From Allobaculum fili (GTDB taxonomy: Bacteria; Bacillota_I; Bacilli_A; Erysipelotrichales; Erysipelotrichaceae): DNA of 18,130 nt. Shown one piece after another: positions 1,451 to 18,130 of the stretch (within the stretch, counting starts at the first letter, position 1; each line of letters begins with the position of its first letter). The stretch lies in assembly GCF_020969955.1 (NCBI RefSeq), contig NZ_JAHDSX010000045.1, positions 1 through 18,130 on the forward strand, read 5' to 3'. Below the pieces are notes generated by a model. It made no database searches, was not told where the DNA came from, and saw only the letters and a program-made list of their open reading frames with translations. The position numbers were made by a program, and so were the translations under genes.

Positions 1451-1455
1451 CAAAA

Positions 1456-3664: not shown

Positions 3665-3704
3665 CAGCTGCCGGAAATTTTATTGAAAGAAAAGCCGGCA
3701 GCTG
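3665..3704. repeat. 10-bp perfect inverted repeat (CAGCTGCCGG / CCGGCAGCTG) in the IID-IIA spacer
   Basis: The arms are 3665-3674 and 3695-3704, separated by a 20-nt A/T-rich spacer. On the plus strand the repeat is followed by TTTTATT, so it is terminator-like in the antisense direction. On the minus (sense) strand no U-tract follows. Confidence 0.6.
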
Positions 3705-3751
3705 TTTTATTCCGGTGCGCCTTTCCAGAAGGGAAAGACAAAGTAAGGAAA

Positions 3752-4615: not shown

Positions 4616-5420
4616 CCCAGTCATCTCCTTCCTCTTCGATGATTGCAGTATCGCCGGCACTCTTTGCGACGGCAGCGGCCGGCTTAGACGATGCGGTGGT
4701 GAAGTAATAGTAGGCAAGAGCCAGACCGATGATCGAAACGCCGAGCATCGGCACGTTCAGATAGGCCGATAGTACGAATCCGGCCAGAAGCATGGACAGG
4801 TATTTCTTAGCCGGCATAACCTGAAGCAGAAGCGCGATACCGACAACCGGAAGCATGTTGCCCGCGATGGACAGTCCATTGGTAAACCATTCGGGAACAA
4901 CGGAAAGAATGAAGCTGACGATCTGTTCGCCGAAGATGACGCAAAGTGCAGTTGGCAGAGCGGTGGAAAGCATGAAGATGACGGGTCCAAGCCAGAGAAT
5001 GCGTTCCATTTTTTTGAAGTTCAGCGCATCGCAGGCTTTTTTGGCTGCGTTGGCTACGTAGGTGTTGAGCAGTTTGGCAAGAACGTCGAGCTGAATGCCG
5101 AGCATGCCGACAGGAACGCCGACCGCCAGCGCAACGGCTTTGGCGGAATCGAGATCGCCCGTGGTACGGCAGGCAACGAAGATGCCGACCAGTGCGGCTA
5201 GTCCCCAGTTGGGGACGGAACTGCCTCCAATGTTGGCGACGCCAAGGTTCATCAGCTGAAATGTTCCGCCGATCATAAGTGCGGTAGTGAGATCGCCCAT
5301 GATGATGCCGGCAGGAACCGAGATCATGATGGGAAACCAGGTCATGAGGACGAGCCCCTGCTGGTCAATGACCATCCAGCAAGCGAGCAGGATGATCAGG
5401 ATAGCCTGTAAAATTTCCAT
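4608..5420 (-). CDS. PTS mannose-family EIIC component
   Basis: A 270-aa polytopic membrane protein with MEILQAILIILLACWMVIDQ...GGTFQLMNLG...GGSSVPNWG, which is ManY/SorA-like. The SD is GAAAGGAAA, about 6 nt upstream. Confidence 0.85.
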   Translation of the reverse strand: MEILQAILIILLACWMVIDQQGLVLMTWFPIMISVPAGIIMGDLTTALMIGGTFQLMNLGVANIGGSSVPNWGLAALVGIFVACRTTGDLDSAKAVALAVGVPVGMLGIQLDVLAKLLNTYVANAAKKACDALNFKKMERILWLGPVIFMLSTALPTALCVIFGEQIVSFILSVVPEWFTNGLSIAGNMLPVVGIALLLQVMPAKKYLSMLLAGFVLSAYLNVPMLGVSIIGLALAYYYFTTASSKPAAAVAKSAGDTAIIEEEGDDWDE

Positions 5421-5457
5421 ATTCAGTTTCCTTTCTCAGAATGATTGATCTGCGTGT

Positions 5458-6027
5458 TCAGATTTCCTGGTTTGAATCGACTGCGAGCGCCTCTTTGGCA
5501 AAAGGGTGAAGTTGCTTAGAGAGATCCGTCTGGATCGGGACGGTTTTTTCGTCCTTGATGTACGTTTCAAAGGCTTCTTCGCTCTCGCCCGGTACATAGT
5601 GGAACGTTACCGGTACGCCGAGCTGCTGCAGACGGCGGAAGTCCTGGACTTCCTTTTCACTGACGGAAACCATCTTTTTCACCGTCTTTTTGCCTTCGCC
5701 GTCGAAGAGAATGCCGATGTTGACTTTCGGAATCTCAATACCGTTTTCCTTGAGGGTGACGAGCGTTTCCGGCTCGCGCACAATGACGAAGACGTTGTGG
5801 TTGTTGTACTTGCCCGCTTTGAAGTTACGGATGGCGGTTTCGGTGTCGATGATGGACATGCCTGTTCCGGCCGGCTTGCTCATGCGCATCGCCTGTTTCT
5901 GGATTTCATCGCCGGATACGATGTCGTCGATGACCATCAGGCGTTTGGCTTTCGTCACTCCTGCCCACTGGGTCACGACGATTCCGTGGATGAGCCGCTG
6001 GTCGACTCTGGCTAATACAATGCTCAT
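5458..6027 (-). CDS. PTS mannose/sorbose-family EIIB component
   Basis: MSIVLARVDQRLIHGIVVTQW carries the IIB-Man phospho-His motif (RxDxRLIHGQV-like). The start is ATG 6027, preceded by GGGAGGAAAAAATT. The tracked ORF extension to 6243 has no SD and a non-protein-like sequence. About 25 extra C-terminal residues are present relative to my recollection of typical IIB length. Confidence 0.85.
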   Translation of the reverse strand: MSIVLARVDQRLIHGIVVTQWAGVTKAKRLMVIDDIVSGDEIQKQAMRMSKPAGTGMSIIDTETAIRNFKAGKYNNHNVFVIVREPETLVTLKENGIEIPKVNIGILFDGEGKKTVKKMVSVSEKEVQDFRRLQQLGVPVTFHYVPGESEEAFETYIKDEKTVPIQTDLSKQLHPFAKEALAVDSNQEI

Positions 6028-6110
6028 AATTTTTTCCTCCCTGGCTGTTCGCCCTGTTGACGAGGACAGAATAGAAAACTTCCAGAAACAGGTAAATGGT
6101 TTGCAAGGAC

Positions 6111-6165
6111 GTTGGGAAAGCGCTTCAAACTCTGGGTATTTCCCAGGACGGCGGGAAATTTCCCG
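6111..6165. promoter_or_regulatory. Cluster of GGGAAA/TTTCCC palindromes upstream of the PTS operon (candidate operator)
   Basis: CGGGAAATTTCCCG (6152-6165) is a perfect 14-bp palindrome. CTGGG-TATTT-CCCAG lies at 6132-6146 and GGGAAAGCGCTTC at 6114-6126. All sit 85-140 nt upstream of the IIB start. They are downstream, in the minus sense, of AT-rich -10-like hexamers (TATTAT and TATATA, complement of 6181-6198). Confidence 0.45.
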
Positions 6166-6310
6166 TTGAAAAAACAGCTTTATATAAAGTGAATAATACG
6201 ATAAAACGCAAAAACGAAAACGGGGAAAGCCTTTTCTTCCCATGGGCCGAAAACACTGAATCGTCCCGATTCAGGCATAAAACGCCTGCCGCCAATCGTG
6301 CAGGCAAAAG

Positions 6311-6540: not shown

Positions 6541-7608
6541 TTACGAAACAGCTTCTTTTGGGAGGTAATTTACCTTTTCTTCGTACTGGCGAAGCTGTCT
6601 TGGACTTAAGGAAGAAAGAAATTCGCTCTCGAGCTGCAGGTATTCCTTCAAGTCGAGCAGCACGTGATAAAACATCGCCTGACTTTCAAAATCGCTCTGC
6701 TCATCCGGACACAAGGCGCCCTGCCGAATGAGGCGGTCGACGTCTTCAAGCTGCGTTTTTGGCCGGGAAGATTCCGTTACGTGAAAGGAGAGCGTGTCGA
6801 TAAAATTTGCGGCCAGTTTGCCATGTCCGGGTATGGACTGAATGGCTTTGACATGAGCATGCAGCTGCTTGAGAATCATGCACTGCAAAAGCCGCACTTC
6901 AAAATACTGCAGAAACCATTTGTCCCGTTCGTGAAAGGAGTTTTGCGTAAACTGGGTGGCCTGGGCGATGCATTCGTTCAGTTCCTCCTGCAGGAGATTG
7001 AGATCGCTGCGCGAAACGTCGGCTTTCTGTTCCTTGCGCAAATACGCCGACACGTCGCACAGGCACGTTTTCAGTTCGGCTTCGACGGCGCCGATTTTTC
7101 GATACAGGCGTTCGCGTTCACTCAGCGTCGGCTGCAGAAGATTCAGTCCGAAGGCGATGAGCGTACCGATCATGAGCAGAATCAGCTCATCGATCACAAA
7201 TTCCGCAGAAAAGTCCCGGTTGATCAGGAAGTGCGCGCCGATGACCGCGTTGACGGAAAGCGTACTTTGCCAGTTGAGCAGATCAAGAATCAGCACGTCG
7301 GCGAAAAGAAACAGAGCGTAAGCCAGATACGACTTTTCCACCAGAGGGAAAATGACGGCACAGATCACGACGGTAATCACAAAGGAAACCAGACGCCAGC
7401 CGATCAGCTGAATCGTATCCTTACGGGTACGGGCAATCAGAGTCAGCAGGGTAATGGTTCCCGCGGATGCCGCATTGGGAAGCTTCAGAAGCTGACAGAC
7501 CAGAATGGCGGCGGCAGAACCGATCCCGATTTTGACGGCGGCCGAAAGCGCCTGGCGCCCACGGCGGCCATACTTCCAGAGCTGCGGGCGAATTTTTTCA
7601 AAGTTCAT
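6541..7608 (-). CDS. Aromatic acid exporter / FUSC-like (ArAE_1, UPF0421-type) integral membrane protein
   Basis: A 355-aa ORF. The N-terminal half has about 5 TM segments (IGIGSAAAILVCQLL..., GTITLLTLIA..., LVSFVITVVICAVIFPLV...), and a helical cytoplasmic C-terminal half follows. This organisation and the N-terminal sequence resemble Bacillus YgaE/YqjA-type proteins. The assignment is from memory of the family pattern. Confidence 0.6.
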   Translation of the reverse strand: MNFEKIRPQLWKYGRRGRQALSAAVKIGIGSAAAILVCQLLKLPNAASAGTITLLTLIARTRKDTIQLIGWRLVSFVITVVICAVIFPLVEKSYLAYALFLFADVLILDLLNWQSTLSVNAVIGAHFLINRDFSAEFVIDELILLMIGTLIAFGLNLLQPTLSERERLYRKIGAVEAELKTCLCDVSAYLRKEQKADVSRSDLNLLQEELNECIAQATQFTQNSFHERDKWFLQYFEVRLLQCMILKQLHAHVKAIQSIPGHGKLAANFIDTLSFHVTESSRPKTQLEDVDRLIRQGALCPDEQSDFESQAMFYHVLLDLKEYLQLESEFLSSLSPRQLRQYEEKVNYLPKEAVS

Positions 7609-7708: not shown

Positions 7709-8665
7709 TCAGTCGATTTTCAGGACTTCGACTTCATCGTAGTCAGGAATCGGAAGGGAAGGGGTGTAGACGTACTGAAAGCTGGACGATCCGGCGGAAG
7801 GTTTCATTTCGTAGACATCCGCAAATACGGTCTGCCCTTCTTTTTTGTAAAGAATGTTGACGTGTCCAAAATACGAATTCGGTCTATCGTCGGGCCAGCT
7901 TAACGAAAAGGCGATCGTCGAATAGCTGGAATCCCTGCCGTCATCTGTCAGCTGAACGGTGTAGTTCTGATCTCCAAGCTCGCGATATGCTTTCAGCAGG
8001 TCTTCGTCGCTCATCGTTCCTTTCTCATCGAGAAAGTCGTAATCGGAGCGCAGGTCGCTTTCCCAAAATCCGTCAACGGAAAAGGACAGATCGTTCGCGT
8101 CCAGATCCGTTTTTTCGCTTCCGGACAGGGCCAGCGTCTGATACATCGTATCGACGCCAAAGGGCATATCGATCCAGGTGCAGGCGTCTGCGGAATACGA
8201 ATTCGGGTCATCTTCTTCTGTTCGGGTGTCGTAGACGTTGATACTCATGCTCTTCGATTTCAGCGTATCCTGTCTGGAAATCTGCAGGGTGGCGAAGCTG
8301 ACGCCATTGATCTTCTCAAGGTGAGCGACCTGAACGCTTACGCCGGCTTTTTCCAGTGTAAGCACGCCGTCTGCATCGTCCGTATAGGGAAAATCGGAGA
8401 TGGAAGAGGAACGCATCACATAAACCGGAAGCAGGACAAAGCACAGACCGGCGATAAGAAGCGCAACGGGTGCTGGCTTCAGCGCATGAAGCAGTCTGGA
8501 GATCTGATGAAAAGCCGGTCGATTGTGAGCGTTCTGGGAAGCCGTATTTTTTGAGGCGCGATTTGAGGCATGAAAAGAACGGGAGTCCTTTTGCGGCGGC
8601 AAAGGCGGCTTCTTTTTTCGTTTGCCAAAATCGTCTGGCGGCATGGCGGCCTGCTGCATAGGCAT
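7709..8665 (-). CDS. Hypothetical membrane-anchored protein: basic Pro/Lys-rich N-terminus, one TM helix, acidic extracytoplasmic domain
   Basis: A 318-aa ORF. The single hydrophobic segment is PAPVALLIAGLCFVLLPVYVM (about aa 64-84), preceded by KRKKKPPLPP. The remainder is D/E/S/T-rich with beta-like periodicity. A purine-rich SD (GGAGAGAGAGGAGA) sits upstream. The start could instead be the ATG at 8659. I recognise no family. Confidence 0.6.
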   Translation of the reverse strand: MPMQQAAMPPDDFGKRKKKPPLPPQKDSRSFHASNRASKNTASQNAHNRPAFHQISRLLHALKPAPVALLIAGLCFVLLPVYVMRSSSISDFPYTDDADGVLTLEKAGVSVQVAHLEKINGVSFATLQISRQDTLKSKSMSINVYDTRTEEDDPNSYSADACTWIDMPFGVDTMYQTLALSGSEKTDLDANDLSFSVDGFWESDLRSDYDFLDEKGTMSDEDLLKAYRELGDQNYTVQLTDDGRDSSYSTIAFSLSWPDDRPNSYFGHVNILYKKEGQTVFADVYEMKPSAGSSSFQYVYTPSLPIPDYDEVEVLKID

Positions 8666-8834
8666 TCTCCTCTCTCTCCATCCCTTTAAGCACAGGATTC
8701 TTCCTTTTCAAACCTGCAGGCAATAAAGACAGGCCGTCTGGACGATTTGGCGTCCGGCGCAGTTCTTTTCGTCTAAGGGACTGCTAAAATGATAGCAGTC
8801 CGATCTTTTGAATCGAACGCTTCATCCGAAAGGG

Positions 8835-8914
8835 GAAGAAAAAAGACCAAAGCTCTGGAAAAAAGGACAAAGGGCTGGTGAAAAGGACAAGGATCTGGAA
8901 AGAAAAAGAGGAAT
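8835..8914 (+). repeat. Four tandem 20-bp purine-rich repeat units immediately upstream of the next CDS
   Basis: The units are 8835-8854 GAAGAAAAAAGACCAAAGCT, 8855-8874 CTGGAAAAAAGGACAAAGGG, 8875-8894 CTGGTGAAAAGGACAAGGAT and 8895-8914 CTGGAAAGAAAAAGAGGAAT. The two central units match at 15/20 positions. The outer units are degenerate (13/20 and 11/20 against unit 2). Confidence 0.7.
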
Positions 8915-8918
8915 TGTC

Positions 8919-9677
8919 ATGGCACAAAGAAAAAACAGTCTGAACAGGAAAAAGGCATTTCACACGTTTGATGAACTTTCTGCGTATGCTGCAGCCGGAT
9001 ATGCGATTGTATTTGGCATCTGCTTTACGTTTTTACTCGGTGTTTTTGACCGGTCGAAAAATTTCTTTGCTTTTCTGTTCTGCATGCTTTCGCTTTTTTA
9101 CGGCCTGCTTGCCGTAACGCGCTTTTTCAAAGCCATCCAGTCCCATTCGGCCCGCCCTTCGACAAAGCGGTCCGCGCCAGATGCGGAACAAAAGCCTCCG
9201 CTTCCTGTCCAGGCGAAAGCGCCGGAATATGAGCGAGAGGTTCCCGAACCGTATCGAAAGCGTCTGGCCATTTTGAAAAAGCAGATTGAACAGGCGGAGG
9301 AGAGCGAAAATGCGATCGACCGTCTGATTCAGGATTCCTTTGGCAGCTCCTGGATGTCTGCTTCCCGCTACAAGAGCGTACTGGACGGAGCCAGAGACGT
9401 TCTCGAAAAAAACTATGAAAACGCCAGTCAGGCTGTTGAAGTATTCGGCAGTGCCGACGTAACGGAAAAGCGGATCCGCTTTCTGGACAATTACGTGGCG
9501 GATTCGACGGATCTTCTCAACCGTATCAACGGCGTGATCGACAAGCTGCTCGAACTGCGCCAGAGCCAGACTTTAAAGGACGGCGACGATCTGGATGAAC
9601 GGCTCGATGAGCTGTCCAGAACGACGATGCTGTATTCAAATCAGCCAGCGCGCATGCCCTCTGGCCAGAACAAGTAA
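8919..9677 (+). CDS. Membrane protein with two N-terminal TM helices and a C-terminal helical domain (possibly XpaC / TelA-like)
   Basis: The start is placed at ATG 8919 (MAQRKNS), 8 nt after AGAGGA. The TTG-initiated extension from 8808 lacks an SD and is the repeat array translated. The TM helices are AAGYAIVFGICFTFLLGVF and FFAFLFCMLSLFYGLLAV. A roughly 150-aa coiled/helical region follows. The family call comes from architecture only and is weak. Confidence 0.55.
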   Translation: MAQRKNSLNRKKAFHTFDELSAYAAAGYAIVFGICFTFLLGVFDRSKNFFAFLFCMLSLFYGLLAVTRFFKAIQSHSARPSTKRSAPDAEQKPPLPVQAKAPEYEREVPEPYRKRLAILKKQIEQAEESENAIDRLIQDSFGSSWMSASRYKSVLDGARDVLEKNYENASQAVEVFGSADVTEKRIRFLDNYVADSTDLLNRINGVIDKLLELRQSQTLKDGDDLDERLDELSRTTMLYSNQPARMPSGQNK

Positions 9678-10132
9678 AACTTACAGGAACAAGAAAATAA
9701 CAGACACGACCCAGACAGTTTCATTCCGTCCTTCTCGCAGGCAGAGAAGGGACTGGATGGAGCTGTTTGTTTCTGCCTTTCTCTGTGTTTGTCTGCTTAT
9801 CTGCAATTTTTTCATCGCTCAGTGCGCATTTTTCACCGCTTTTGCTCGTTCTGGACCATCCAGAACCTGCAGGAAATCTCAGAGATCGTACACAATTCCT
9901 GCCCCGTTCCAAAAAGAATGACCATTTAAATCCCGATTGGATATCCTAGAAACAGAACGATCATCCAAAATGATCACGAATATGTTTATGAAAACCGATG
10001 ATCGATTCCCGCTATGCCCGCTATGCTGAGGCTGTTTTTGGAAAGGCAGTAAAAAATTACCCCCTTCGCGAGGGCAGTTTGGCGAGGATCTTATCATTTT
10101 TGTGAAATCAGGAAACAGGAGGAGTTTCTACG

Positions 10133-12166
10133 ATGGAAAGCCAGAGAACGATTACCCGACGCTTGGCTTCGGCGCTGGATTCGCTCGAAGACGAATTCAG
10201 CGGCCTGTATACAAAACGGGCTGTCACGCTGCGGCAGAAAGCTTTGGAAAAAGCCACCGAATCCATGCGGCCGTCCGCTTTAAAAAAGCTGCTGGATCTT
10301 TACGATCGCCTGGGCATTTCGTATTTGCCCGATCAGTCCAATGACTACTATCTTCACCTTACCGACACGTATGCATTCGAGCTGGAAACGTTTGAAGATG
10401 TCGAAGCCAGCATGCTGAACAGTCTCTATCGTCGCTTTCAGACGTATGCCACACCCAGTGAATATCTCAAACGCGATGTGGACCGTCTGAGTTTTCCCGA
10501 AGATGCAGCCTGGAAGGACGATTCGCTTCGGGTACGCATTCTCCGGCAGTTTGTGAAATACGGCGGATTTCCAAAATCCGCAGGGTTTGGAGGCAAAAAC
10601 TACCTGCAGAGCTGCGTCCGCGAAAAATCCGGCAATCCGAGAATGACGCTCGAAAACGGTGCGGATTTTCTCGATGACGATGTCTTTGAACCGCTGGCCA
10701 CTGCAGACAGGCCGGATCTGAAGCCGAAAGGCAAATACGGACTGCTTCGAAAAATCGATGATCTGGCCCGAGGCCGTTTTCGCGTACAGGGCGTTACAGT
10801 GCAGATGCTGTACTATTTCGCCATTGTCTATAACATGAGCTACTTTACGAACAATCAGGCGGACTTTGAAATTCTGGATCACGATTCCGATATCGAAATC
10901 AATCTGTTCCGGGACTACTACGACAATAACCTCACCCGCTTTTTATCGGAATCCATGACAAACCGGGCAGGCGGACTGGAGTATGTGCCGACCGGCCGCG
11001 GCATCAATTACAAGAACTTCGCGGAAATGGTCTATCTCTACTACCTTCGCCAGAACGATCTGAGTCCGGCGCAGAAAATTGAGCGCGCGGAACAGATGAT
11101 TGACTCGATCCGCAGTGAAAAAAGTAAGAGCGGAAAGTCCGTAAAAGCTATGGAGACGCCGACACAGCAGTATCGAAATTACGTCCGGCAGAGCCCTCTC
11201 GCCTCGAATCTGGAAGGACAGGACGCGCTTTCGTGGTCGGAGGAGGATTTTAAAGCGTTTCTTCTCGAAAACTACGACTGCGATATCTACGCGCTGACGG
11301 ATACTAGGAGAACGCCGACCGTCATGGAACTGGCACAGGAACAGCGCAGTGCCAGAGCGCAGTATCAGGCGATTCTCGATCAGCTCAATGCGCGCGGCGT
11401 GGATGCCCAGACGTGCAAAGGCGGTCTGTGGTTTACCGACGTACGCTCCATGCAAAAAGAGGGGATCGGGCTGCTCGAAGAAAAACTGGGCGTTGCGGGC
11501 GAAGACGTCAAACAGTTTGCGCGTCTTCTGATCAATGCCAACAATCTGGTCTCTTCTATAGGAAAAGACGGAAAACAGTTCAGAAAGCAGGAAGAAAACC
11601 TTTTGCCGGAAGTGCTTCTGGAAGCGCTGAATCCGTCCGATACCGAAGAAGAACCGGATGCGGAAGATCCCATGCAAATCTGGACGGATTTTGTGGCCAG
11701 GGTTCGCAATCAGTGTGCAGACCAGAATCTGGATGACAAAGAAATCCTGAACCTGGCCAGAGTTCTGGCCAGGGACAATGGGATAACGGTACCAGAAACT
11801 TTGCCGAAGGCAGCCGTACAAAACGGGAAAGCAAACAGACTGGCCAGTTTGAAAAAGCAAGCCGATTCCCAGAAACAGGCCGAAGCTTCAAACACGCAAG
11901 AAGCTGAGCCGAAACCAGAGCCCAGAAGCGTGCCGCAGCTTATGGCGATGAGCCGGACGGTTTTGCTGAGTGCCTTCTACTATTTGTTCAACGATCTGCA
12001 CGCCGTCGATTCCCCCGATATGTGGGCGTGCTACGAAGATCTGTTCAAAGCCTTTAAGCAGCAGGCGGATCCGTATCTGATCGCCGCCGGCTACCAGCCC
12101 GTCAGCGGCAAAAATCTGTTCGATGTCCTGCTGACCTTCTCCTCCTACGCCTCCCTGATTCTTTAG
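10133..12166 (+). CDS. Hypothetical 677-aa soluble protein with no recognisable domain (first gene of the kinase/phosphatase cassette)
   Basis: A long ORF with a strong SD (AGGAGGAG) 10 nt before the ATG. Amino-acid composition is protein-like throughout and no TM segment is present. There is an acidic/Lys-rich low-complexity stretch at about aa 495-600. I found no Walker, MIDAS (DxSxS) or FHA motifs. Confidence 0.75.
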   Translation: MESQRTITRRLASALDSLEDEFSGLYTKRAVTLRQKALEKATESMRPSALKKLLDLYDRLGISYLPDQSNDYYLHLTDTYAFELETFEDVEASMLNSLYRRFQTYATPSEYLKRDVDRLSFPEDAAWKDDSLRVRILRQFVKYGGFPKSAGFGGKNYLQSCVREKSGNPRMTLENGADFLDDDVFEPLATADRPDLKPKGKYGLLRKIDDLARGRFRVQGVTVQMLYYFAIVYNMSYFTNNQADFEILDHDSDIEINLFRDYYDNNLTRFLSESMTNRAGGLEYVPTGRGINYKNFAEMVYLYYLRQNDLSPAQKIERAEQMIDSIRSEKSKSGKSVKAMETPTQQYRNYVRQSPLASNLEGQDALSWSEEDFKAFLLENYDCDIYALTDTRRTPTVMELAQEQRSARAQYQAILDQLNARGVDAQTCKGGLWFTDVRSMQKEGIGLLEEKLGVAGEDVKQFARLLINANNLVSSIGKDGKQFRKQEENLLPEVLLEALNPSDTEEEPDAEDPMQIWTDFVARVRNQCADQNLDDKEILNLARVLARDNGITVPETLPKAAVQNGKANRLASLKKQADSQKQAEASNTQEAEPKPEPRSVPQLMAMSRTVLLSAFYYLFNDLHAVDSPDMWACYEDLFKAFKQQADPYLIAAGYQPVSGKNLFDVLLTFSSYASLIL

Positions 12167-12202
12167 CGGCTCCTGGCCGCCCGACAGCACCTTCTGCGTG
12201 AG

Positions 12203-12280
12203 GGAATTTTCCGTTATGTATACGAGAGGAAATTCTCTGTTATGTATATCGGTTATTTAGATCGGTTGCTTATATCGGTG
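12203..12280 (+). repeat. Two sets of direct repeats in the spacer upstream of the PP2C gene
   Basis: GGAATTTTCCGTTATGTATA (12203-12222) repeats as GGAAATTCTCTGTTATGTATA (12228-12248), sharing an identical 10-mer GTTATGTATA. This is followed by ATCGGTT / ATCGGTT / ATCGGTG at 12248, 12261 and 12274, an exact 13-nt period. Confidence 0.6.
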
Positions 12281-12384
12281 GCCTTGCGGACGGTTCTGTC
12301 TTTCGCCTTTCTTTTTCGAAACAACCGGCTCTGCCGCCGCGGCAGTTCCTGGCGAAGAAGGGAGATGTCTGTGGAGGAAGAAAA

Positions 12385-13374
12385 ATGCTGTTTTGGATGT
12401 CGGATCGCGGTACGCGTCATATCCAGGAAAAGAAAGACTGCGAAGACTGCCTCGGCGCGGCAGTGGAAGAAAATCGTGTCGTTTTGGCACTGGCGGACGG
12501 AGTCAGTACGTGTAAAAAAGCGGCGAAAGGCGCAAAAATCGCGGTGCACACGCTGCTCGATCTGCTGATGGATCTGGATCTGACCCGGCCGGCCGGTCTT
12601 CAGCGCCAGAAAATCTTTGAGAAAGTGTGGAATGCCCAGCGACTGGAAGCCGAAAAAACCGGATGCAGCGTAGAGGACTATTCGTGTATATACGCCGCGC
12701 TTCGATACGACCGGGATACGGATCGTCTGTTTTATCTCTCGCTTGGCGATGCGATGATCCTGGCGATGGGAGAAGAAACCGATCGGGGGCTGCTGGTCAT
12801 GCCGGCTTCGAAGCAAAACGGAACACCCGCATCGACCACAGTGCATGGCGAGCGTCTCCTTCAGATCGGACACGTCTGCGGCAAGCCGTATACGTCAATT
12901 CTGCTTTGTTCGGATGGAGCCTGGTCTTTACTGTACGATCGCAACCGCATGAAAACCGAGGCTCGAAAGCTCATAGAATCCGAAAACTTCGAGGGAATTA
13001 CGGGCTATCTGAAAAAAGGAAACGGTGTGGACGACTGTTCCTTTTTAGCGCTCCAGCTCGAAAACTGGATAAGGGCATCGAACATACGACCGGCACGACG
13101 GCACGCCGGTTTGTGTCGATATAAAAACGCCGGCCCAAATGCGGCTGCCTATCCGGGGCCGGGAAATCGAATAGAACGTATTCTGGTTCGTCGAAGCCCA
13201 GAGTCACCGGTTTTTGCTGATTTTTCGGGGGACACGATCGCAAAAGCCGGCACCTGGAGGCTTCAGGCCGACGGCGCGGTTTCTTATTCGCCTTTTGAAA
13301 GAAAGCAGAAGCCGGAGAGCCGCCGAATACGCAGAACCATTTTGCTGCAGGGCGAGGGAAGCATGCCCCTGTAG
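12385..13374 (+). CDS. PP2C-family (PP2C_2-like) Ser/Thr protein phosphatase with an unusual ~105-aa Arg-rich C-terminal extension
   Basis: The SD GGAGGAAG ends 5 nt before the ATG. Metal-binding motif blocks appear in canonical order: KDCEDC (NxD-like), VVLALADGVST, ILLCSDGAW and GVDDCSF. The core ends at about nt 13060. The ORF runs on to 13374 with low-complexity sequence, so the 3' boundary of the real product is uncertain. Confidence 0.75.
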   Translation: MLFWMSDRGTRHIQEKKDCEDCLGAAVEENRVVLALADGVSTCKKAAKGAKIAVHTLLDLLMDLDLTRPAGLQRQKIFEKVWNAQRLEAEKTGCSVEDYSCIYAALRYDRDTDRLFYLSLGDAMILAMGEETDRGLLVMPASKQNGTPASTTVHGERLLQIGHVCGKPYTSILLCSDGAWSLLYDRNRMKTEARKLIESENFEGITGYLKKGNGVDDCSFLALQLENWIRASNIRPARRHAGLCRYKNAGPNAAAYPGPGNRIERILVRRSPESPVFADFSGDTIAKAGTWRLQADGAVSYSPFERKQKPESRRIRRTILLQGEGSMPL

Positions 13375-13458
13375 AAGCATGTCGCTGTAAAGGAAAACCG
13401 CCAGCAGCTGAAAAAAAACGGTCGTCCGGGGACGGACAAAACGCACCGGTGCGAGAAG

Positions 13459-13482
13459 ACTTGAAAAGAAACTTGAAAAGAA
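13459..13482 (+). repeat. Perfect tandem duplication ACTTGAAAAGAA x2 in the purine-rich leader of the kinase gene
   Basis: 13459-13470 and 13471-13482 are identical. The perfect 12-bp palindrome CGCACCGGTGCG lies just upstream (13442-13453). Confidence 0.7.
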
Positions 13483-13515
13483 AAGGAAAAAAAGCTGACT
13501 GAGAAGAAGGCCGAT

Positions 13516-16500
13516 ATGAAGGCCCAAAAGAATACCAAAAAGAATGCGGGAATGGGTATGGAAATTCGAAATCCAAATGAAATCCGGCTGGTGCTGTATT
13601 CCAGACAGAGCGAGGAGCGGCTGTGCCGGGTTTTTCATATTTGTTCAAAACTTGGCGAAGGAGCTTTTTCTACGGTGTACGAAGCTTATCACGAGGAAAG
13701 TTTTCGCGGGGTACTGAAACAGTACGGACAAAAGGGCGAGAGTGCAGATTTTGTCGATCCGCTGCTTGCCCCGTACTTCCTGCTTCGGGAGACGCTTCAG
13801 AAAGGAAAGTCGCAGGATCTGGCGAACTTTCTGCCCTTGTACGAAATTTATGAAGAAGAAGGACAGAAAGGCAGCTTCTGGATCTGGATGCCGGCTGCCC
13901 GCGTCGTTTCGTTCGCGGATCTTTGCCGCTCCATTCGTCAGTCGTCGAAAACGGCGAGTGAAGTTCTGGAACTGCTGCTGACCGCGATCGGTTCGCTTTT
14001 GCGCGGCGTGCAGTCGCTTCACGAAAGCGGAATGGTTCACCGGGATCTCAAACCGGCCAACTTCGGCATCCGCAAGCACAACGATACGTATCTCTCGCAG
14101 GGCGTCTGCCTGTACGATGTGGAATCGATCTGTTCGGTTTACAAACCAGGCCTCATTGTCACGGGAACGCCAGGCTATATGGAACCCGAAGCGCTTTGGG
14201 AAGATCCAAGCAATCAGACCGATCTCTATTCGATTGGCGCCATTTTGTATAACGCGCTGATTTTTACCGAAGAAGACAGCGAACACGGAAGAACCCCGGA
14301 TGGAAATCCGGCAGGCTGTACGTTTGGTGCGGTGTATGCCGAACTGAAAAATTCCCGGCTCTTCGCGGATCCGGCTCTGAAAAATGCATCGCGCCTTTTA
14401 CGACAGCTTGCGCAGATGATCAGCCGGGCTCTGGCGCCTCGCGCGCGCCGCTATCCTTGCGCGGAACTGATGCTCGAAGATCTGAACGCCATCTTATCCC
14501 GCGTGCGGCAGATGACGCGGCGCAAAAAGCAGCAGAGCGCGCTCATTTCGCTCGAACAGTTTTTTCAGGCGTCTTCGAGTTCCCGCTTAAGAGGACTGGA
14601 ACCGCTGCGCCATCTTCATGCGCATCTGTTTGAGCTGCCCGTCGGCCGGCAAAATCCCCGATTGAACGGGAAAACGCGCCGGGAAAACCGGGTCATGCTG
14701 ATCGGGTTTGGCATTTTCAGCGAGCTGGTTATCGATCTGCTTTTGCAGATGATTCAGTTTGAGGAAAACCCAGTAGAAATTCTGATTGTCAGCGAAGATC
14801 CGGAAGAATTTGAACGGTACGTAAAAGGGCGGCCGGGTCTTCGGGATTTCTTCGGTCTCATTTACGAAACGCCTTTTGGAACCGTGAAAAAATCCGTTCC
14901 CGCAAATGCTTCGTATGGAACCATTCGTTTTTATCCTCTGCACCTCGATTTCATCGGGGATACGCTGTTCGATCTGCCGGGAAGACTGCAAAAAGACGTT
15001 CTGCATTCGGATTCCGTTTTCATTGCGCTCGCACGGGATACCAGAAACCGCAATCTGGCTGCTTCGCTGAGCGATCTGTGTGCACAAGAGAACGTCCTTT
15101 GCGATATTCGCTTTCATCAGCAGTTTCCTGAGGGCCCCTACGAGCTGGCTGTGTGGCAGGAAAACGAAAAAGAACCGGATTTTACATGTTCGAGTATGGA
15201 AGCCTTGCCAATCCGAACGGATGCAGAGTTTTCCAAAGACGAAGAAAAACTATGCCGGCTGCTCGATGAGCTGGCGTTTAATGCCCATCTGTTATGGCAG
15301 CGCCAGAGCATGCCGGATCTGGAAGCTGCCAGACGCGAATTTGAAGATCCTTACGCGTACTATTCGTCTTTATGTACCGCTATGACTATTCCCGCAAAGC
15401 TGGCGGGATTCGATCTGACGCTCGATCTACAAAATCCGAAGGACGTACTTTCCGAATTTCGAAAACGCCTGTCGGATCCGGTGTATGCCCAGGCCAGACA
15501 AAATCTGGTGTGCGCGGAACATCGCCGCTGGATTGTCGAAAAGCTCTGCCGCGGCTGGAGCCGGCTGGATGATCTGGACGCCTGCATTCCGGGCAGAACG
15601 TACGACCATCACGAGCACCATCTGCTGCTGGTGGATTCCACGCCCAGTCTGACGCTTCAGAACGGAATCTGGAAAGAGCGGTCCATGTGGGATCAGGCCG
15701 ATGAAGCACATCTGGCTTTACTGGATGATCTGGATCGACGCTCGGTGGAAGTGCACCAGCACCATTTGCGAAAAGCCAGAGACGTGCGCGCCTCGGCTAC
15801 GCCGTTTTCTCTGGGACTGGAGGAACTGGAATCGATTGCCCGCGCAAACGAAACCGTCTGGTCGGCGTTTTTCGCCTGGAAAAGCTGCGTTCTGGAAATC
15901 TGGAATGGGGAGCAGAAAGCCAGCGGGCCGTATAAAAAGCACACGGGCATCCTGAAAAAAGCGCTCGCTAAGCTGGATCCGGCGCAAGCCGTGCGTGCAG
16001 CCGATATCCTGAACCGTTTTGAACAAAGCTTCTGGCCGCTTGCCGCCTGTCACGATTACAAGGACTGGAAGATCAACGATTTAGTTCTGATTGATGAAAT
16101 TCCGTTTCTGCTCGATTTCAGCAGCGAACATCAGATCTGGATGGAACTTCGTTTGGAGTACGTGGAAGATATTCTCCATACGCTTTTTGCGTTTGAACCC
16201 CGTCAGCTCCGGATGGTCTGCGCTCCAAAAAATCAGGAAGAGGCGAAACGGGACTATGCGCTGGCTGTGCAGATTGCCCGCCTGATGCGCACCCGTCATC
16301 AAAGTCTTCAAATCGATCTTGTACTTCTGAATGAGGGAGATTCAACAGCGTTTTTGCCCATTTCATCTTCGAGGTGCGGTCCGGTATACACCGAAACCGA
16401 AATGGATGGAGAAGTTCCCGTCTATATCCTGAATCCAGACTGCTCGGATGAAGCTCTCGATCGGGCATCGGACAGGAACAAAACGGAGGAAAGCGGAAGC

Positions 16501-17841
16501 ATCGAAAACGATGCAGAAGCCTTCGTTTCAAAGCCTTCGGTTTTAGCCCGGATGTTTGTGCAGAGATTTGAGAAAACCGGACCGGCAGGAAGCCTGCTGG
16601 AAGGTCTCGTTCAAAGCGGCAAAGCGTATCGTTTAAATACTGTAAAGTCCCTCCAAGAAGACAATCTGGATCCGGATCTTTCAGACTGTCCGGAACGCGA
16701 TTCTCTCCAGCCGGAATGTCTCAATGAAAGACCCTGCATGCAGGATGAGGAAGTCATGAACTGGCTGGGTCTGAAAACCGGTCAGCCGGCGTTTGCGCAC
16801 TATGAAGGCGACGAAGAGCTGTGGGCGATTTATTCCGAAAATCCAGCGGCGTGGACATCGCTCTGTGAACTGCTTTCCGCACTTTCCGTACACATTTCGC
16901 CAATCGTCTTTGATGATCACGCTCTGGCCCCAGCCCATGAGCGAATGCAGGTTTACGCCCTGCCGGAAGCCTGCCGCCCCGCCCTAAAGCGCATTATGGA
17001 TGCGCTGAAACAGGCGCATCTCATTGAAGAAGAGAGCGGTCTGTATTCCCGCTACGTAGAATCGCTCGAATTTCGCGCAGTATCGCCTTTTGATCTGAAG
17101 GAAAGCTTTGCGCGTCTGTTCTGGAATTTCCGTCTGGTCATGGACGAACATACGGTTCAGATCGAAAAAGCTGCAAATAGGGAAGTGAAGGTTGCGCTGG
17201 ATCCGCTGGATCTGGAAACCAGCCACCTGGAAGAAGAGCTTTCGCGTCTGGAAAGTCAGTATTCGCCTGAGATTGTTTCGTCCTGCCGGGCGTGTCTGGA
17301 ACGGCTGATTCAGAAACGGCTTCTGATTTCGAGCGGATGGACAAAACCGCTCGAAGCGGGTGCGCCTTTGCGCTTTGTCTCGCACCGTCTGAAGCAGCTG
17401 CTGAGCAATCCGGTTGCGATCCTTCGTGCCCGTCTCGTCTCGCATCTGCACATGACTTCAAAGTACGACGATTTTATGGGCGGCATGTCCTTTGAATCGC
17501 GGGAAGGCAACCTTTCTTTGGACAGACCGGCCGAATTTGACTGCCTGCTGATCAAAGGTCTTCGTTCGGTTTTTGTACGCGTGATCGATACGGCAAACCA
17601 GCCATCGTCTGCCGATCTGAAAACGATCGATCAGCTGATGGCGCGCGGACATGGCCTTTGCCGGATGGTGTATGTACTTTGCTCGCCATATGCCTGCACC
17701 AGAAGGGAAGAACCGGTTCAGAGGGATGCTCTGGAGCGTGCCGGCGATCTCGATTATGTGTATTTTCTTTCGGCCGGCGCGATGGACGAGCCCGATACGC
17801 TGGAGAACCTTCCGGAAAAAATTGTCGAAGCGTTCAAGTAA
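13516..17841 (+). CDS. 1441-aa cytosolic multidomain protein: N-terminal Hanks-type Ser/Thr kinase plus ~1100 aa of unassigned domains
   Basis: Kinase motifs are LGEGAFSTV (G-loop, aa 46-54), GVLK (Lys68), HRDLKPANF (aa 175-183), DVE in place of DFG (aa 201-203), GTPGYMEPE (aa 217-225) and DLYSIGAILY. No TM, PASTA or signal sequence is present. The SD is GAAGAAGG, 5 nt upstream. In-frame alternative starts exist at Met13 and Met15. Confidence 0.85.
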   Translation: MKAQKNTKKNAGMGMEIRNPNEIRLVLYSRQSEERLCRVFHICSKLGEGAFSTVYEAYHEESFRGVLKQYGQKGESADFVDPLLAPYFLLRETLQKGKSQDLANFLPLYEIYEEEGQKGSFWIWMPAARVVSFADLCRSIRQSSKTASEVLELLLTAIGSLLRGVQSLHESGMVHRDLKPANFGIRKHNDTYLSQGVCLYDVESICSVYKPGLIVTGTPGYMEPEALWEDPSNQTDLYSIGAILYNALIFTEEDSEHGRTPDGNPAGCTFGAVYAELKNSRLFADPALKNASRLLRQLAQMISRALAPRARRYPCAELMLEDLNAILSRVRQMTRRKKQQSALISLEQFFQASSSSRLRGLEPLRHLHAHLFELPVGRQNPRLNGKTRRENRVMLIGFGIFSELVIDLLLQMIQFEENPVEILIVSEDPEEFERYVKGRPGLRDFFGLIYETPFGTVKKSVPANASYGTIRFYPLHLDFIGDTLFDLPGRLQKDVLHSDSVFIALARDTRNRNLAASLSDLCAQENVLCDIRFHQQFPEGPYELAVWQENEKEPDFTCSSMEALPIRTDAEFSKDEEKLCRLLDELAFNAHLLWQRQSMPDLEAARREFEDPYAYYSSLCTAMTIPAKLAGFDLTLDLQNPKDVLSEFRKRLSDPVYAQARQNLVCAEHRRWIVEKLCRGWSRLDDLDACIPGRTYDHHEHHLLLVDSTPSLTLQNGIWKERSMWDQADEAHLALLDDLDRRSVEVHQHHLRKARDVRASATPFSLGLEELESIARANETVWSAFFAWKSCVLEIWNGEQKASGPYKKHTGILKKALAKLDPAQAVRAADILNRFEQSFWPLAACHDYKDWKINDLVLIDEIPFLLDFSSEHQIWMELRLEYVEDILHTLFAFEPRQLRMVCAPKNQEEAKRDYALAVQIARLMRTRHQSLQIDLVLLNEGDSTAFLPISSSRCGPVYTETEMDGEVPVYILNPDCSDEALDRASDRNKTEESGSIENDAEAFVSKPSVLARMFVQRFEKTGPAGSLLEGLVQSGKAYRLNTVKSLQEDNLDPDLSDCPERDSLQPECLNERPCMQDEEVMNWLGLKTGQPAFAHYEGDEELWAIYSENPAAWTSLCELLSALSVHISPIVFDDHALAPAHERMQVYALPEACRPALKRIMDALKQAHLIEEESGLYSRYVESLEFRAVSPFDLKESFARLFWNFRLVMDEHTVQIEKAANREVKVALDPLDLETSHLEEELSRLESQYSPEIVSSCRACLERLIQKRLLISSGWTKPLEAGAPLRFVSHRLKQLLSNPVAILRARLVSHLHMTSKYDDFMGGMSFESREGNLSLDRPAEFDCLLIKGLRSVFVRVIDTANQPSSADLKTIDQLMARGHGLCRMVYVLCSPYACTRREEPVQRDALERAGDLDYVYFLSAGAMDEPDTLENLPEKIVEAFK

Positions 17842-17885
17842 AAAACGGATGTATACCCTTATGATTTATCTGCTTTTCTAACAAA

Positions 17886-17929
17886 CCCCCGAAATCGGTG
17901 TGAAACGGATTTCGGGGGTTCCGTTTTCT
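17886..17929 (+). terminator. Strong intrinsic terminator closing the kinase cassette
   Basis: CCCCCGAAATC (17886-17896) pairs perfectly with GATTTCGGGGG (17908-17918), an 11-bp GC-rich stem. It is followed by TTCCGTTTTCTC and lies about 45 nt after the stop codon. Confidence 0.85.
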
Positions 17930-18049
17930 CTGGCTATGTCTTTTCACTAGGGAGCACTGCATGCTTTTACCCCCGTAAAATGCAAAGGTCCGCCATTTCG
18001 TATAGTAAGTGTCAAACAATCGACGGGTATACGCGAGACTGAATATTAG

Positions 18050-18097
18050 ATACGCTAAACGGGATCCCTTTCGAGATCCCGCTTGGCGTATTTTTTA
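18050..18097. terminator. Compound hairpin with a T6 tract, probably a terminator shared with a convergent minus-strand gene entering from the right edge
   Basis: The outer stem is ATACGC (18050-18055) with GCGTAT (18086-18091). The inner stem is CGGGATC (18060-18066) with GATCCCG (18075-18081). TTTTTT follows on the plus strand. On the minus strand an open frame runs from the window edge (...PDPKYEENDEE) to TAA at 18095-18097, directly abutting the hairpin. That is only 11 codons, so the CDS itself is not called. Confidence 0.5.
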
Positions 18098-18130
18098 TTC
18101 TTCATCGTTTTCTTCATACTTCGGATCCGG

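Follow-up and report, generated by a model that had tools for sequence, protein, structure and literature searches.

Organization of the cassette

The stretch of DNA analyzed here (the window) comprises 18,130 nucleotides of the Allobaculum fili genome and carries three + strand open reading frames, at 10133..12166 (677 aa, gene A), 12385..13374 (329 aa) and 13516..17841 (1441 aa). Gene A encodes a member of an unannotated all-helical family, the second gene a PP2C phosphatase, and the third a giant multidomain Ser/Thr kinase, recognized by the ORF call and by homologues at the same position. The original prediction had placed three co-directional genes at these coordinates, each with its own Shine-Dalgarno site, and both points are borne out. 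Direct reading of the sequence locates AGGAGGAG at 10117..10124 on the + strand, 8 nt 5' of the ATG of gene A, GGAGG at 12373-12377 ahead of the PP2C gene, and a weaker site, GAAGAAGG, at 13503-13510 ahead of the kinase gene.

The cassette is closed by a strong intrinsic terminator at 17886..17929 (+ strand), also predicted originally and evident on direct reading. Its 11-bp stem is GC-rich and perfect (17886-17896 paired with 17908-17918), the loop has 11 nt, and the tail is rich in T. This loop places it outside the hairpin scan, which was limited to loops of 8 nt and which returned 16 sites in the region versus 12.7 expected by chance. Between gene A and the kinase gene, the intergenic space contains a single weak 5-bp terminator-like hairpin (12190-12204). 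The spacer between gene A and the PP2C gene is unusually long at 218 nt, is identical in another contig of the same species (L061), and contains tandem direct repeats at 12197..12279 on the + strand (a 26-nt unit present twice, with a 13-nt period repeated three to four times). The two intergenic gaps in the window measure 218 and 141 nt, whereas relatives show overlaps or gaps of about 20 nt.

Protein A had been described as an orphan. Homologues are in fact abundant, with at least 236 in a first search and 621 clusters at 50% identity in an exhaustive one, and the term is valid solely in the sense that the protein lacks a curated family or structure match. No match to it was found in Pfam, NCBIfam, PADLOC or PHROG, none in the PDB by sequence or profile, and none among PLSDB plasmids, INPHARED phages or IMG/VR. 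A structure search with AlphaFold and Foldseek had been suggested as a way to place the protein; the AF2 model is all-alpha (pLDDT 76.8, pTM 0.72) and Foldseek returned no match to it in the PDB or BFVD. Near the N terminus lies the motif T-I-T-R-R (aa 6-10; 10148..10162, + strand), in which T8 is invariant among 41 sequences and each of the other four residues (T6, I7, R9 and R10) reaches at least 90% conservation. Residues 1-15 have pLDDT values below 50 in the AF2 model and are predicted to form a disordered tail; the motif is a candidate phospho-acceptor. A low-complexity, lineage-specific insertion of about 100 aa (roughly aa 480-600; 11570..11932, + strand) is missing from the typical homologues of about 575 aa; it includes the low-pLDDT stretches at aa 480-510 and aa 558-601 and is predicted to be disordered.

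The PP2C_2 phosphatase domain occupies aa 1-227 of the second protein (12385..13065, + strand), with PF13672 matching aa 8-201 at E 2.6e-21 (76.6 bits versus a gathering score of 24). The metal-binding Asp blocks noted originally are all present, namely D21, D38, D122, D177, D216 and D217, and they are invariant in the family alignment. The remaining C-terminal tail of about 100 aa (aa 228-329; 13066..13374, + strand) is non-homologous to relatives: the 15 homologues compared measure 224-267 aa and contain nothing corresponding to it. Its pN/pS is 1.18, versus 0.46 for the PP2C domain (with few substitutions), and its nucleotide divergence is 2.9%, versus 0.4-0.7% in the adjoining coding regions. 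The tail is probably unconstrained read-through.

Domain architecture and divergence of the giant kinase

The Hanks-type kinase domain spans approximately aa 36-340 (13621..14535, + strand) and contains K68, H175-R-D177, N182, D201 and an E-P-E motif. Pfam Pkinase (PF00069) matches aa 41-251 at E 2.3e-17, with 63.7 bits against a cut-off of 31.7. The four catalytic residues named in the original prediction (Lys68, Asp177, Asn182 and Asp201) lie at exactly those positions and are conserved across 38 homologues. Canonical giant kinases of the family combine the kinase domain with a Rossmann-like domain, RyR-like tandem repeats and a PD-(D/E)xK nuclease of the Can2/Card1 type. For the non-kinase part of the window protein, AF2 gave a model of low confidence (pLDDT 43.6).

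The Rossmann-like domain (approximately aa 385-560; 14668..15195, + strand) carries a GxGxxS sequence within "MLIGFGIFS", at a position where a GxGxxG motif is conserved in the family, and a beta-alpha-beta pattern can be seen in the low-confidence model. Among 33 family members, seven match Sacchrp_dh_NADP (PF03435), at best with E 1e-4; the window kinase does not.

Tandem repeats resembling the RyR (R12) domain follow at approximately aa 575-750 (15238..15765, + strand), with residues N589/H591/W594 and E668/H669/W672/H702/D740, all of them invariant in the kinase family. Pfam RyR (PF02026) scores 13.6 bits against the window kinase (E 0.083), below the gathering score of 27.4, and reaches E 0.018 in 2 of 33 family members. 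An hhalign comparison of the repeats with small RyR proteins gave E 7e-4 at a probability of 26%, and all six PDB profile matches of the region were to RyR3 R12 or RyR2 repeats (E 0.15-0.3); a local HMM test did not rise above shuffled controls. In weak alignments to RyR3 R12 and small RyR proteins, H75, W78, H100 and D117 of the phage protein RyDEP correspond to H669, W672, H702 and D740 of the kinase, and H591/W594 of the first repeat likewise align to ligand-contacting positions of RyR. Taken together, these sequence comparisons are suggestive of, though they do not prove, an RyR identity for the middle region of the kinase. R12 domains have been found to bind or cleave 2'/3'cADPR made by TIR proteins (PMC13232231). 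This role of RyR domains was not demonstrated until 2026, and then solely in phage anti-defence proteins such as RyDEP.

Further downstream is a conserved alpha/beta region with an "IPFxL" motif (approximately aa 850-1010; 16063..16545, + strand), in which K852, I862, P863, F864, L866 and P895 are invariant. By position it matches the CARF strand at the N terminus of Can2 and a DUF1887 protein, though only non-significantly (i-Evalue of 100 or more), and alignments to the PADLOC CARF_PDDEXK models are confined to the nuclease part, from about position 200 onward; a CARF-like fold here is possible but unproven.

In the C-terminal domain of the family, Card1_endonuc (PF09002) is found in 28 of 33 members, PDB matches are to Can2 (7bdv, E 3.4e-4) and a DUF1887 protein (8bao, E 1.5e-3), and the E-D-E-K nuclease signature is intact in 32 of 38 kinases. 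The corresponding part of the window kinase (17383..17841, + strand) has no Pfam match to PF09002; it keeps E1340 and D1342, but the E-x-K element has become R1355-V-I1357. The domain has decayed, and its nuclease is regarded as catalytically dead. The original prediction assigned sensing or effector functions to the approximately 1100 non-kinase residues. This fits the family, with its RyR-like repeats and Can2/Card1-type nuclease, while in the window copy the nuclease site has been destroyed.

The sister clade in A. mucilyticum also has a dead nuclease, even though its kinase protein is only 36% identical to that of the window. Identity between the two is 24% in the nuclease-like domain and 45% in the kinase domain, and within the window clade the kinase and RyR-like regions are retained while the nuclease is relaxed and is the least conserved part. 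A nuclease-less form that has been kept open over such a long divergence, with its kinase and RyR-like parts conserved, argues against the view that the A. fili cassette is a decaying relic, one that has lost its nuclease site, its small RyR partner (see below) and its tight gene spacing and is no longer useful. The R-V-I replacement, the poor conservation of the nuclease-like domain, the unconstrained PP2C tail, the wide intergenic gaps and the disordered insertion in protein A are all consistent with decay. Nonetheless, dozens of samples carry all three long ORFs (677, 329 and 1441 aa) in intact form, the signature residues of the kinase, PP2C and RyR-like domains are all kept, and within the species A, the PP2C domain and the kinase have pN/pS values of 0.37-0.49, estimated from 8 to 31 substitutions. 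With the shared nuclease loss in A. mucilyticum added to these observations, we consider the relic explanation unlikely.

Conservation, genomic context and a proposed mechanism

A giant kinase (1285-1639 aa) lies directly after the gene A homologue in 46 of 48 informative non-redundant loci. The PP2C gene sits between the two in 33 of these 46 loci but not in the other 13; with PP2C dispensable in about a quarter of loci, protein A and the kinase make up the core of the system. A reverse look-up starting from the kinases also recovers A, TIR and RyR genes. The original prediction of a self-contained three-gene module is thus sustained by a gene order that is conserved across phyla. The distribution is patchy, covering gut and rumen Bacillota, Synergistota and Spirochaetota; the carriers belong to Lachnospiraceae, Oscillospiraceae, Erysipelotrichaceae, Selenomonadaceae, Synergistaceae, Sphaerochaetaceae and Anaeroplasma.

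The homologous cassettes do lie near defence genes, a possibility that had been raised for checking. Among the 116 proteins encoded within two genes on either side, the most frequent families are RyR (13), TIR_2 (13) and ThsB_TIR (5), and PADLOC matches among the neighbours include TIR, MADS, Mza and DRT models. Type I restriction-modification, TIR-STAND and TIR-NACHT-TPR genes adjoin some of the cassettes. Of about 50 other loci, 12-13 have a TIR gene close to the cassette, and since this is only about a quarter of them, a signal made by TIR proteins cannot serve as the input everywhere. In at least 15 loci the gene directly downstream of the kinase encodes a small canonical RyR protein of about 93 aa; these small proteins match Pfam PF02026 with E values down to 2.6e-37. 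At one locus (L055), a Pkinase domain is fused to a canonical RyR domain (PF02026, E 1.4e-37, 128 bits).

The surroundings of the A. fili cassette are metabolic, with genes for an RpiR regulator, a GH13 alpha-glucosidase, a mannose-type PTS and an aromatic acid exporter (ArAE). Neither the window nor, in contigs of the same species, the 4 kb downstream of it contains a TIR gene, a gene for a small RyR protein or any known defence gene. An ORF at 8808/8919-9677 had been tentatively called XpaC/TelA-like and linked to a Ter-type membrane-stress theme; it matches neither TelA nor XpaC at E values up to 1, and the link is without support.

This metabolic setting raises the prospect of signalling that has nothing to do with immunity, in which A and the kinase/PP2C pair would sense NAD+, ADP-ribose or ATP through the Rossmann- and RyR-like domains and regulate stress responses or growth arrest. 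The dead nuclease of the window copy would suit such a role, as would the finding that ordinary adenine nucleotides are ligands of RyR3 R12 domains as well (PMC13232231). However, the patchiness across phyla, the high divergence of two Allobaculum species from each other (36% identity for the kinase, 52% for A), the enrichment of TIR, STAND, restriction-modification and MADS genes as neighbours, and the intact, promiscuous-type nucleases of most members are features typical of conflict systems and argue against a housekeeping regulator. We consider this explanation unlikely.

A patchy distribution would also fit a cassette that travels as cargo on an integrative or conjugative element or regulates one, serving for instance in entry exclusion or transfer control together with ClpP-like and TraG/VirD4-like genes. 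An adjacent pair of such genes occurs within 10 kb of the cassette in 7 of 52 loci; A. fili is among these, its contigs carrying the pair immediately beyond the window end. The pair is absent from the other 45 loci, however, and where present it may lie either upstream or downstream, 0.3-3 kb away. Furthermore, the terminator at 17886-17929 separates it from the kinase gene, protein A has no match in the plasmid and phage collections (see above), and no other conjugation genes were seen among the 116 neighbours. An association with a mobile element in this sense seems quite improbable.

We slightly favor the interpretation that the cassette is an undescribed conflict- or defence-type module, with a kinase/PP2C switch under the control of a nucleotide-sensing RyR-like domain, and that the A. 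fili copy is nuclease-dead. The defence role is itself inferred from genomic context. The original reading of a signalling or defence module survives with respect to a conserved syntenic cassette in a defence-gene context, though not with respect to an orphan first gene or a Ter theme.

The mechanism proposed for the defence-type module begins with the RyR-like repeats, which would bind an adenine or ADP-ribose-type nucleotide; this is suggested by the correspondence of their His/Trp/His/Asp positions to the ligand-binding residues of RyR R12. Ligand binding, input from protein A, or both would turn the kinase on, and the active kinase would autophosphorylate and phosphorylate its targets, with the T-I-T-R-R tail of protein A as a candidate. 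Kinase activity might then arrest the infected cell or trigger downstream responses, and the PP2C phosphatase would hold the switch off and reset the kinase. In the canonical relatives, the same activation would also release the nuclease, and the small RyR protein may buffer or degrade the signal. In A. fili, phosphorylation would be the sole possible output.

A bolder version of this model, which we put forward tentatively and hold to be well short of an even chance, is that the cassette represents a new immune route. A host-encoded receptor of the RyR (R12) type, recognizing an ADP-ribose-derived signal made by TIR-STAND proteins or by NAD+ breakdown, would drive a Ser/Thr kinase together with the Can2-like nuclease of canonical members. 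Protein A, with its helical fold, would serve as a novel type of sensor or phospho-substrate, two separate off-switches would be supplied by PP2C and the small RyR protein, and the A. fili cassette would be a nuclease-less, phosphorylation-only derivative.

To our knowledge, few kinase-based systems of bacterial immunity have been described, and their triggers are mostly unclear. The cassette would join a kinase/PP2C switch to TIR-made nucleotide signals and RyR domains, and the fusion or linkage of a host RyR domain with a kinase and a Can2-type nuclease would, if real, constitute a directly testable receptor-effector pair. Natural variants could provide built-in controls, since cassettes exist with and without PP2C and with and without the small RyR protein, along with nuclease-dead forms and a minimal kinase-RyR fusion. 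Protein A adds a sizeable family (about 620 clusters) whose helical fold is confidently predicted but unmatched. The carriers are abundant gut and rumen anaerobes, including mucin-degrading Allobaculum species of the human gut, a setting in which little is known of phage-host biology.

Relation to known systems

A Ser/Thr kinase with a cognate PP2C in a Bacillota genome recalls the housekeeping pair PrkC/PrpC (Stk1/Stp1), which the original prediction had already set aside, and that judgment is upheld. The PASTA kinase model NF033483 scores 32.4 bits against the window kinase, versus a cut-off of 450, and aligns to the kinase domain only; no PASTA domain is matched by Pfam, and the window kinase lacks a transmembrane segment. 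The phosphatase belongs to the PP2C_2 subfamily, the translation-related neighbourhood is replaced by PTS, GH13 and ArAE genes, and the cassette is patchy across phyla rather than near-universal.

Another system that pairs these enzymes is the TerY-P triad (TerY vWA, PP2C and Ser/Thr kinase), which was reportedly described as anti-phage by Gao et al. in 2020. The cassette resembles it in the co-directional order of an accessory protein, a PP2C and a Ser/Thr kinase, in the presumed reversible phospho-switch and in its defence-island contexts. The first protein, however, is all-helical without vWA or MIDAS (the missing MIDAS motif had already led the original prediction to doubt a TerY triad), and the kinase is about 1400 aa long with Rossmann-like, RyR-like and Can2-type nuclease modules, the PP2C being optional. 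The TerY-P assignment was rejected, with a vWA Pfam match in 0 of 41 members of the protein A family and an all-alpha model for protein A.

The family C-terminal domain similarly invites comparison with Can2/Card1 (CARF4-PD-(D/E)xK, DUF1887/PF09002), ancillary nucleases of type III CRISPR systems, with which it shares the PF09002 nuclease, the E-D-E-K signature and what would be a ligand-gated promiscuous nuclease. In the cassette, this nuclease is fused to a kinase, a CARF domain is undetectable, and in the window copy the E-x-K element is lost. No cas families were seen among the 116 neighbours or in the listed loci, and a type III CRISPR association was rejected. That the cassette is a divergent TerY-P triad or a Can2-like type III effector is thus already contradicted by the defining features that were tested, and we regard either identity as very improbable.

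Hanks-type kinases serve as immune effectors or regulators in Stk2, PD-T4-6, MADS MAD6, BREX PglW and the KKP system of Pf prophages, and KKP also pairs kinases with a phosphatase (PMC11341870). The resemblance is generic. Matches of the window kinase to the PD-T4-6 and mad6 models of PADLOC (E 1e-16 to 1e-20) extend no further than the kinase domain, and the full-length models fall far below their cut-offs (46.9 bits versus 460 for MAD6; 34.1 versus 990 for PglW). Partner genes and architecture also differ, and no BREX or MADS partner genes occur in the window.

The cassette also has parallels with Thoeris-type TIR signalling and with phage RyDEP: TIR and RyR genes are its commonest neighbours, and small RyR proteins and a kinase-RyR fusion occur in the family. 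The cassette lacks a ThsA-type effector, the window lacks both a TIR gene and a small RyR gene, and the internal RyR-like region of the kinase is only weakly similar to canonical RyR domains. RyDEP itself is a phage-encoded anti-defence protein, whereas the RyR domains of the cassette are host-encoded and tied to a kinase.

Layout of the cassette

The three co-directional open reading frames of the original prediction are present, exactly as placed there, on the forward strand: gene A, encoding a 677-aa protein (10133-12166), a PP2C gene (12385-13374; 329 aa; PP2C_2 PF13672 match, E 2.6e-21) and a giant kinase gene (13516-17841; 1441 aa; Pkinase PF00069 match, E 2.3e-17). By exact look-up the proteins belong to Allobaculum fili, and NCBI annotates them as a hypothetical protein, a PP2C domain-containing protein and a protein kinase domain-containing protein, respectively. 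Each gene was said to have its own Shine-Dalgarno sequence, and a purine-rich ribosome-binding site does precede all three on the forward strand, AGGAGGAG at 10117-10124 for gene A, GGAGG at 12373-12377 for the PP2C gene and a weaker GAAGAAGG at 13503-13510 for the kinase gene. The catalytic positions named earlier (K68, D177, N182 and D201 of the kinase, D38 of the phosphatase) are also exact. The kinase domain motifs found across the family ('GxLKEF', 'HRDIKPxNFG', 'FD(I/V)' and 'EPE') are all retained in the window copy, and from these residues the kinase domain is predicted to be active and the kinase and phosphatase to be catalytically competent.

The cassette is closed by an intrinsic terminator at 17886-17929 (forward strand), a perfect 11-bp hairpin with an 11-nt loop and a T-rich tail; it was read directly from the sequence, because the length of the loop caused the terminator scan to pass over it. 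The sole terminator-like site between the genes is a weak one of 5 bp at 12190-12204; terminator-like sites in the region numbered 16, near the 12.7 expected by chance. A promoter scan detected no sigma-70-like promoter in 8600-18130. The spacer between A and PP2C is unusually long (218 nt), and its sequence is identical in a same-species contig. At 12197-12279 a stretch of 26 nt is duplicated in tandem and a 13-nt unit (TCGGTT..TTA.A) occurs three to four times, and this repeat-bearing spacer could be an operator or internal promoter region. The 141-nt spacer between PP2C and kinase contains a perfect 12-nt tandem duplication (ACTTGAAAAGAA x2) at 13459-13482 and is set apart from same-species contigs by an indel of 1 nt.

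Conservation and neighbourhood of the module

Scanning one genome per species yielded 52 loci, from Lachnospiraceae, Oscillospiraceae, Ruminococcus, Erysipelotrichaceae (Allobaculum mucilyticum, Solobacterium and Thomasclavelia), Selenomonadaceae, Synergistaceae, Sphaerochaetaceae and Anaeroplasma, the carriers being gut or rumen organisms almost throughout. When the count was limited to the 48 non-redundant loci with enough downstream sequence, the giant kinase lay directly 3' of A on the same strand in 46, with a PP2C_2 gene between the two in 33 of these 46 and absent from the other 13; reverse look-ups from the kinases gave the same arrangement. The genes are therefore syntenic across genomes, and the lack of synteny that the original prediction named as speaking against a module was not found. 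A and the kinase form the core of the system, to which PP2C is a common but optional addition. In three loci A or the kinase is split or fragmented, in one of them (Catonella) into several pieces, which suggests that the cassette is occasionally pseudogenised. In the complete genome of Allobaculum sp. Allo2, the kinase, the PP2C and an unrelated GH13 gene are annotated as fragments (P0316, P0317, P0331, P0274); these may be assembly frameshift errors rather than real decay, and were left out of the evidence.

Protein A, previously called an orphan, turned out to have at least 236 homologues of about 575 aa, and in an exhaustive profile search the family came to 621 clusters at 50% identity, with E below 1e-30 for 420. 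In the alignment the A. fili protein has an extra low-complexity insertion of about 100 aa relative to a typical member. Sequence and PDB profile searches with A gave no match in Pfam, NCBIfam, PADLOC, PHROGs or PDB; a Pfam scan of 41 family members found a domain in none of the 41, nor in longer homologues with N-terminal extensions. An AF2 model built from 41 sequences is confident (pLDDT 76.8, pTM 0.72) and all-helical, and Foldseek searches with this model gave nothing below E 0.04 in PDB or in BFVD, a set of viral structure predictions. The conserved N-terminal sequence T-I-T-R-R (T8 invariant, the other four residues at least 90% conserved in 41 sequences) falls in a tail predicted to be disordered.

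The conserved A-(PP2C)-kinase module resides in defence-type neighbourhoods. The genes up to two positions away from the cassette at about 45 loci encode 116 proteins, in which the top Pfam families were RyR (13), TIR_2 (13) and ThsB_TIR (5), and PADLOC recognised TIR models along with components of MADS, Mza and DRT. At individual loci TIR-NACHT-TPR proteins, type I restriction-modification systems and other TIR proteins adjoin the cassette. Furthermore, the system is linked to RyR domains. A canonical RyR protein of about 93 aa is encoded directly 3' of the kinase, with a gap of 0-30 nt, in at least 15 loci (16650-16931 of locus L004, 6627-6908 of L010, 7387-7668 of L013 and at least 12 more), and L013 has two tandem copies. 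These small RyR proteins are 60-77% identical among themselves, versus about 40% for the A proteins. At one locus (L055, 10204-11622; Candidatus Fimenecus sp.) the gene after the A homologue encodes a minimal protein of 472 aa in which a kinase is fused to a canonical RyR domain (PF02026, E 1.4e-37), and this domain fusion provides independent evidence that kinase and RyR domain work together. At the same locus and four others (L019, L038, L039 and L053) neighbouring proteins of 616-716 aa have a weaker RyR-like segment at their C-terminal end; a transglutaminase-like protein is also found nearby more than once.

The window copy has a different setting, with neither a TIR gene nor a small RyR gene in the window and with the end of an rRNA operon, a sugar-utilisation operon and an exporter as flanks. 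Positions 1-94 are the 3' end of a 23S rRNA gene and 210-316 hold a whole 5S rRNA gene, so that the locus lies just downstream of an rRNA operon. The sugar-utilisation operon (444-6243, reverse strand) comprises an RpiR/MurR-type regulator (444-1199), a GH13 alpha-glucosidase or phosphotrehalase-like enzyme (1456-3177; 692 bits against the treC model, whose cut-off is 799) and mannose-family PTS components IIA, IID, IIC and IIB, all on the reverse strand, and is followed by an ArAE-family exporter (6541-7608). Two further open reading frames, at 7709-8665 (reverse) and 8808/8919-9677 (forward), match nothing in the family libraries and do not recur beside the cassette in other genomes. In the second, a membrane segment is predicted and the C-terminal half is coiled-coil-like; its proposed XpaC/TelA-like identity found no support in these libraries. 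This local context agrees with a role in metabolic signalling, but that reading is opposed by the patchy distribution and fast divergence of the module, by its TIR, STAND and restriction-modification neighbours and by the nuclease discussed below.

Just past the window end, same-species contigs carry two adjacent genes, one for a ClpP-like protease of 164-200 aa and one for a short ATPase of TraG/VirD4-like type (about 420 aa). The pair occupies 17768-19643 of the same-species locus L061 (from about window position 18100 onward), 16874-18730 of L007 and 1701-3547 of L065, and lies no more than 10 kb from the cassette in 7 of 52 loci (13%), always as a pair. A function for the cassette in a conjugative element would explain these loci, but not the remaining ones, and it also fits poorly with the absence of the module from plasmid collections: A had no match in PLSDB plasmids, nor in IMG/VR viral contigs or INPHARED phage genomes. 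The ClpP/TraG pair, which matched no PADLOC model, may be a candidate defence or mobile-element module in its own right. In A. fili an in-frame stop seems to have cost the ClpP-like gene about 30 codons at its start.

The giant kinase and its altered nuclease

The anatomy of the giant kinase was derived from an alignment of 38 non-redundant kinases and a Pfam scan of 33 members; a homologue search with the non-kinase part gave four matches. Beyond the kinase domain lie a Rossmann-like domain with a GxGxxG motif (Sacchrp_dh_NADP match in 7 of 33), two helical repeats, a further conserved alpha/beta region and a C-terminal nuclease domain. The latter matches Card1_endonuc (PF09002) in 28 of 33 members and, in PDB, the solved Can2 (7bdv, E 3.4e-4) and a DUF1887 protein (8bao, E 1.5e-3); most members carry a Can2-type nuclease. 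The PADLOC CARF_PDDEXK models align to the family over their nuclease half; a CARF domain was not accepted, as PDB profiles and PADLOC models gave non-significant matches only.

The two helical repeats, with the motifs 'ERMAFNxHLxW' and 'EHRRWVxEKLCxGW...KxHxC...LDxLDRxS', contain the highest density of family-invariant residues in the protein. The window kinase falls below threshold against Pfam RyR (E 0.083). In profile-profile comparison with the small RyR proteins the expected motif was aligned (E 7e-4, probability 26%), and a profile search of 177,635 PDB sequences gave six matches, all of them RyR3 R12 or RyR2 repeat structures, and in these alignments the two repeats are in register (E 0.15-0.3). 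A local HMM of the small RyR proteins scored the kinases no higher than shuffled controls, and the resemblance to RyR (R12) repeats is for that reason held to be suggestive. RyR R12 domains bind or cleave the TIR-derived signals 2'/3'cADPR, and the ligand-contacting R12 residues are conserved in the RyR family (PMC13232231); in weak alignments H669, W672, H702 and D740 of the window kinase occupy these positions, with H591 and W594 in the first repeat. An AF2 model of the non-kinase part (5 sequences, pLDDT 43.6) was kept out of the fold search, and the fold evidence for a sensor domain is weak.

Of the 38 kinases, 32 keep the whole nuclease signature E...D...E-x-K; the window copy reads E1340, D1342 ... 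R1355-V-I1357, and the sister clade of A. mucilyticum and relatives lacks even the Asp. In comparisons of canonical members no part is better conserved than the nuclease, with identities in two tested pairs of 67% and 46%, versus 52% and 46% for the kinase domain and 51% and 46% for the RyR-like region. Between the window copy and the sister clade, the kinase domain and RyR-like region are best conserved (45% each) and the nuclease-like domain is among the worst (24%). The kinases of the two Allobaculum lineages are 36% identical, and both retain an open reading frame of 1343-1441 aa; the nuclease-less kinase is therefore a long-standing form that has been maintained, rather than a recent pseudogene. 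The small RyR gene accompanies none of the 6 kinases with an altered motif and 15 of the 32 with an intact one; a coupled loss of the two was rejected, the difference not being significant (Fisher p = 0.063, uncorrected for phylogeny).

Nothing in relatives corresponds to the PP2C tail (aa 228-329); their PP2C genes in most cases share 4 nt with the start of the kinase gene. This tail has a pN/pS of 1.18 within A. fili, where A has 0.49, the PP2C domain 0.46 and the kinase 0.37; all four values come from few substitutions. That the nuclease is dead, that PP2C has a tail and that the spacing has loosened would agree with a functionless relic, against which stand intact reading frames and signature residues, both retained over the long term.

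Proposed function and relation to known systems

The cassette is probably a conserved, uncharacterised conflict or defence module. The combined statement, that such a module includes RyR-like nucleotide sensing of a kinase/PP2C switch, is favoured by a narrow margin over its negation, and the details of nucleotide sensing by the RyR-like repeats are tentative and rather doubtful. In the favoured model, the RyR-like repeats would sense an adenine or ADP-ribose-type nucleotide, and this event and/or input from A would activate the kinase, which would phosphorylate itself and its targets, a candidate being the N-terminal T-I-T-R-R of A. PP2C would hold the system off and reset it. In canonical members the nuclease would also be released, and the small RyR protein might buffer or remove the signal; in A. 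fili phosphorylation would be the sole possible output.

No PADLOC (2023) model covers A, a literature search of incomplete coverage found no published description of the cassette, and the report of a phage RyR-domain anti-defence protein, RyDEP (PMC13232231), does not mention host-encoded RyR proteins or kinases. Membership in the TerY-P systems fails because their first protein is a vWA protein and A has no vWA domain, and a Can2-type ancillary role in CRISPR immunity fails because cas genes are absent from the 116 neighbours and no CARF domain is detectable. The combination of a kinase/phosphatase switch, a ligand-gated nuclease and a TIR context follows the logic of known kinds of immune systems; what is new is the A family, the fusion of a kinase to RyR-like repeats and a Can2-type nuclease, the host-side RyR proteins, and the combination of all of these.
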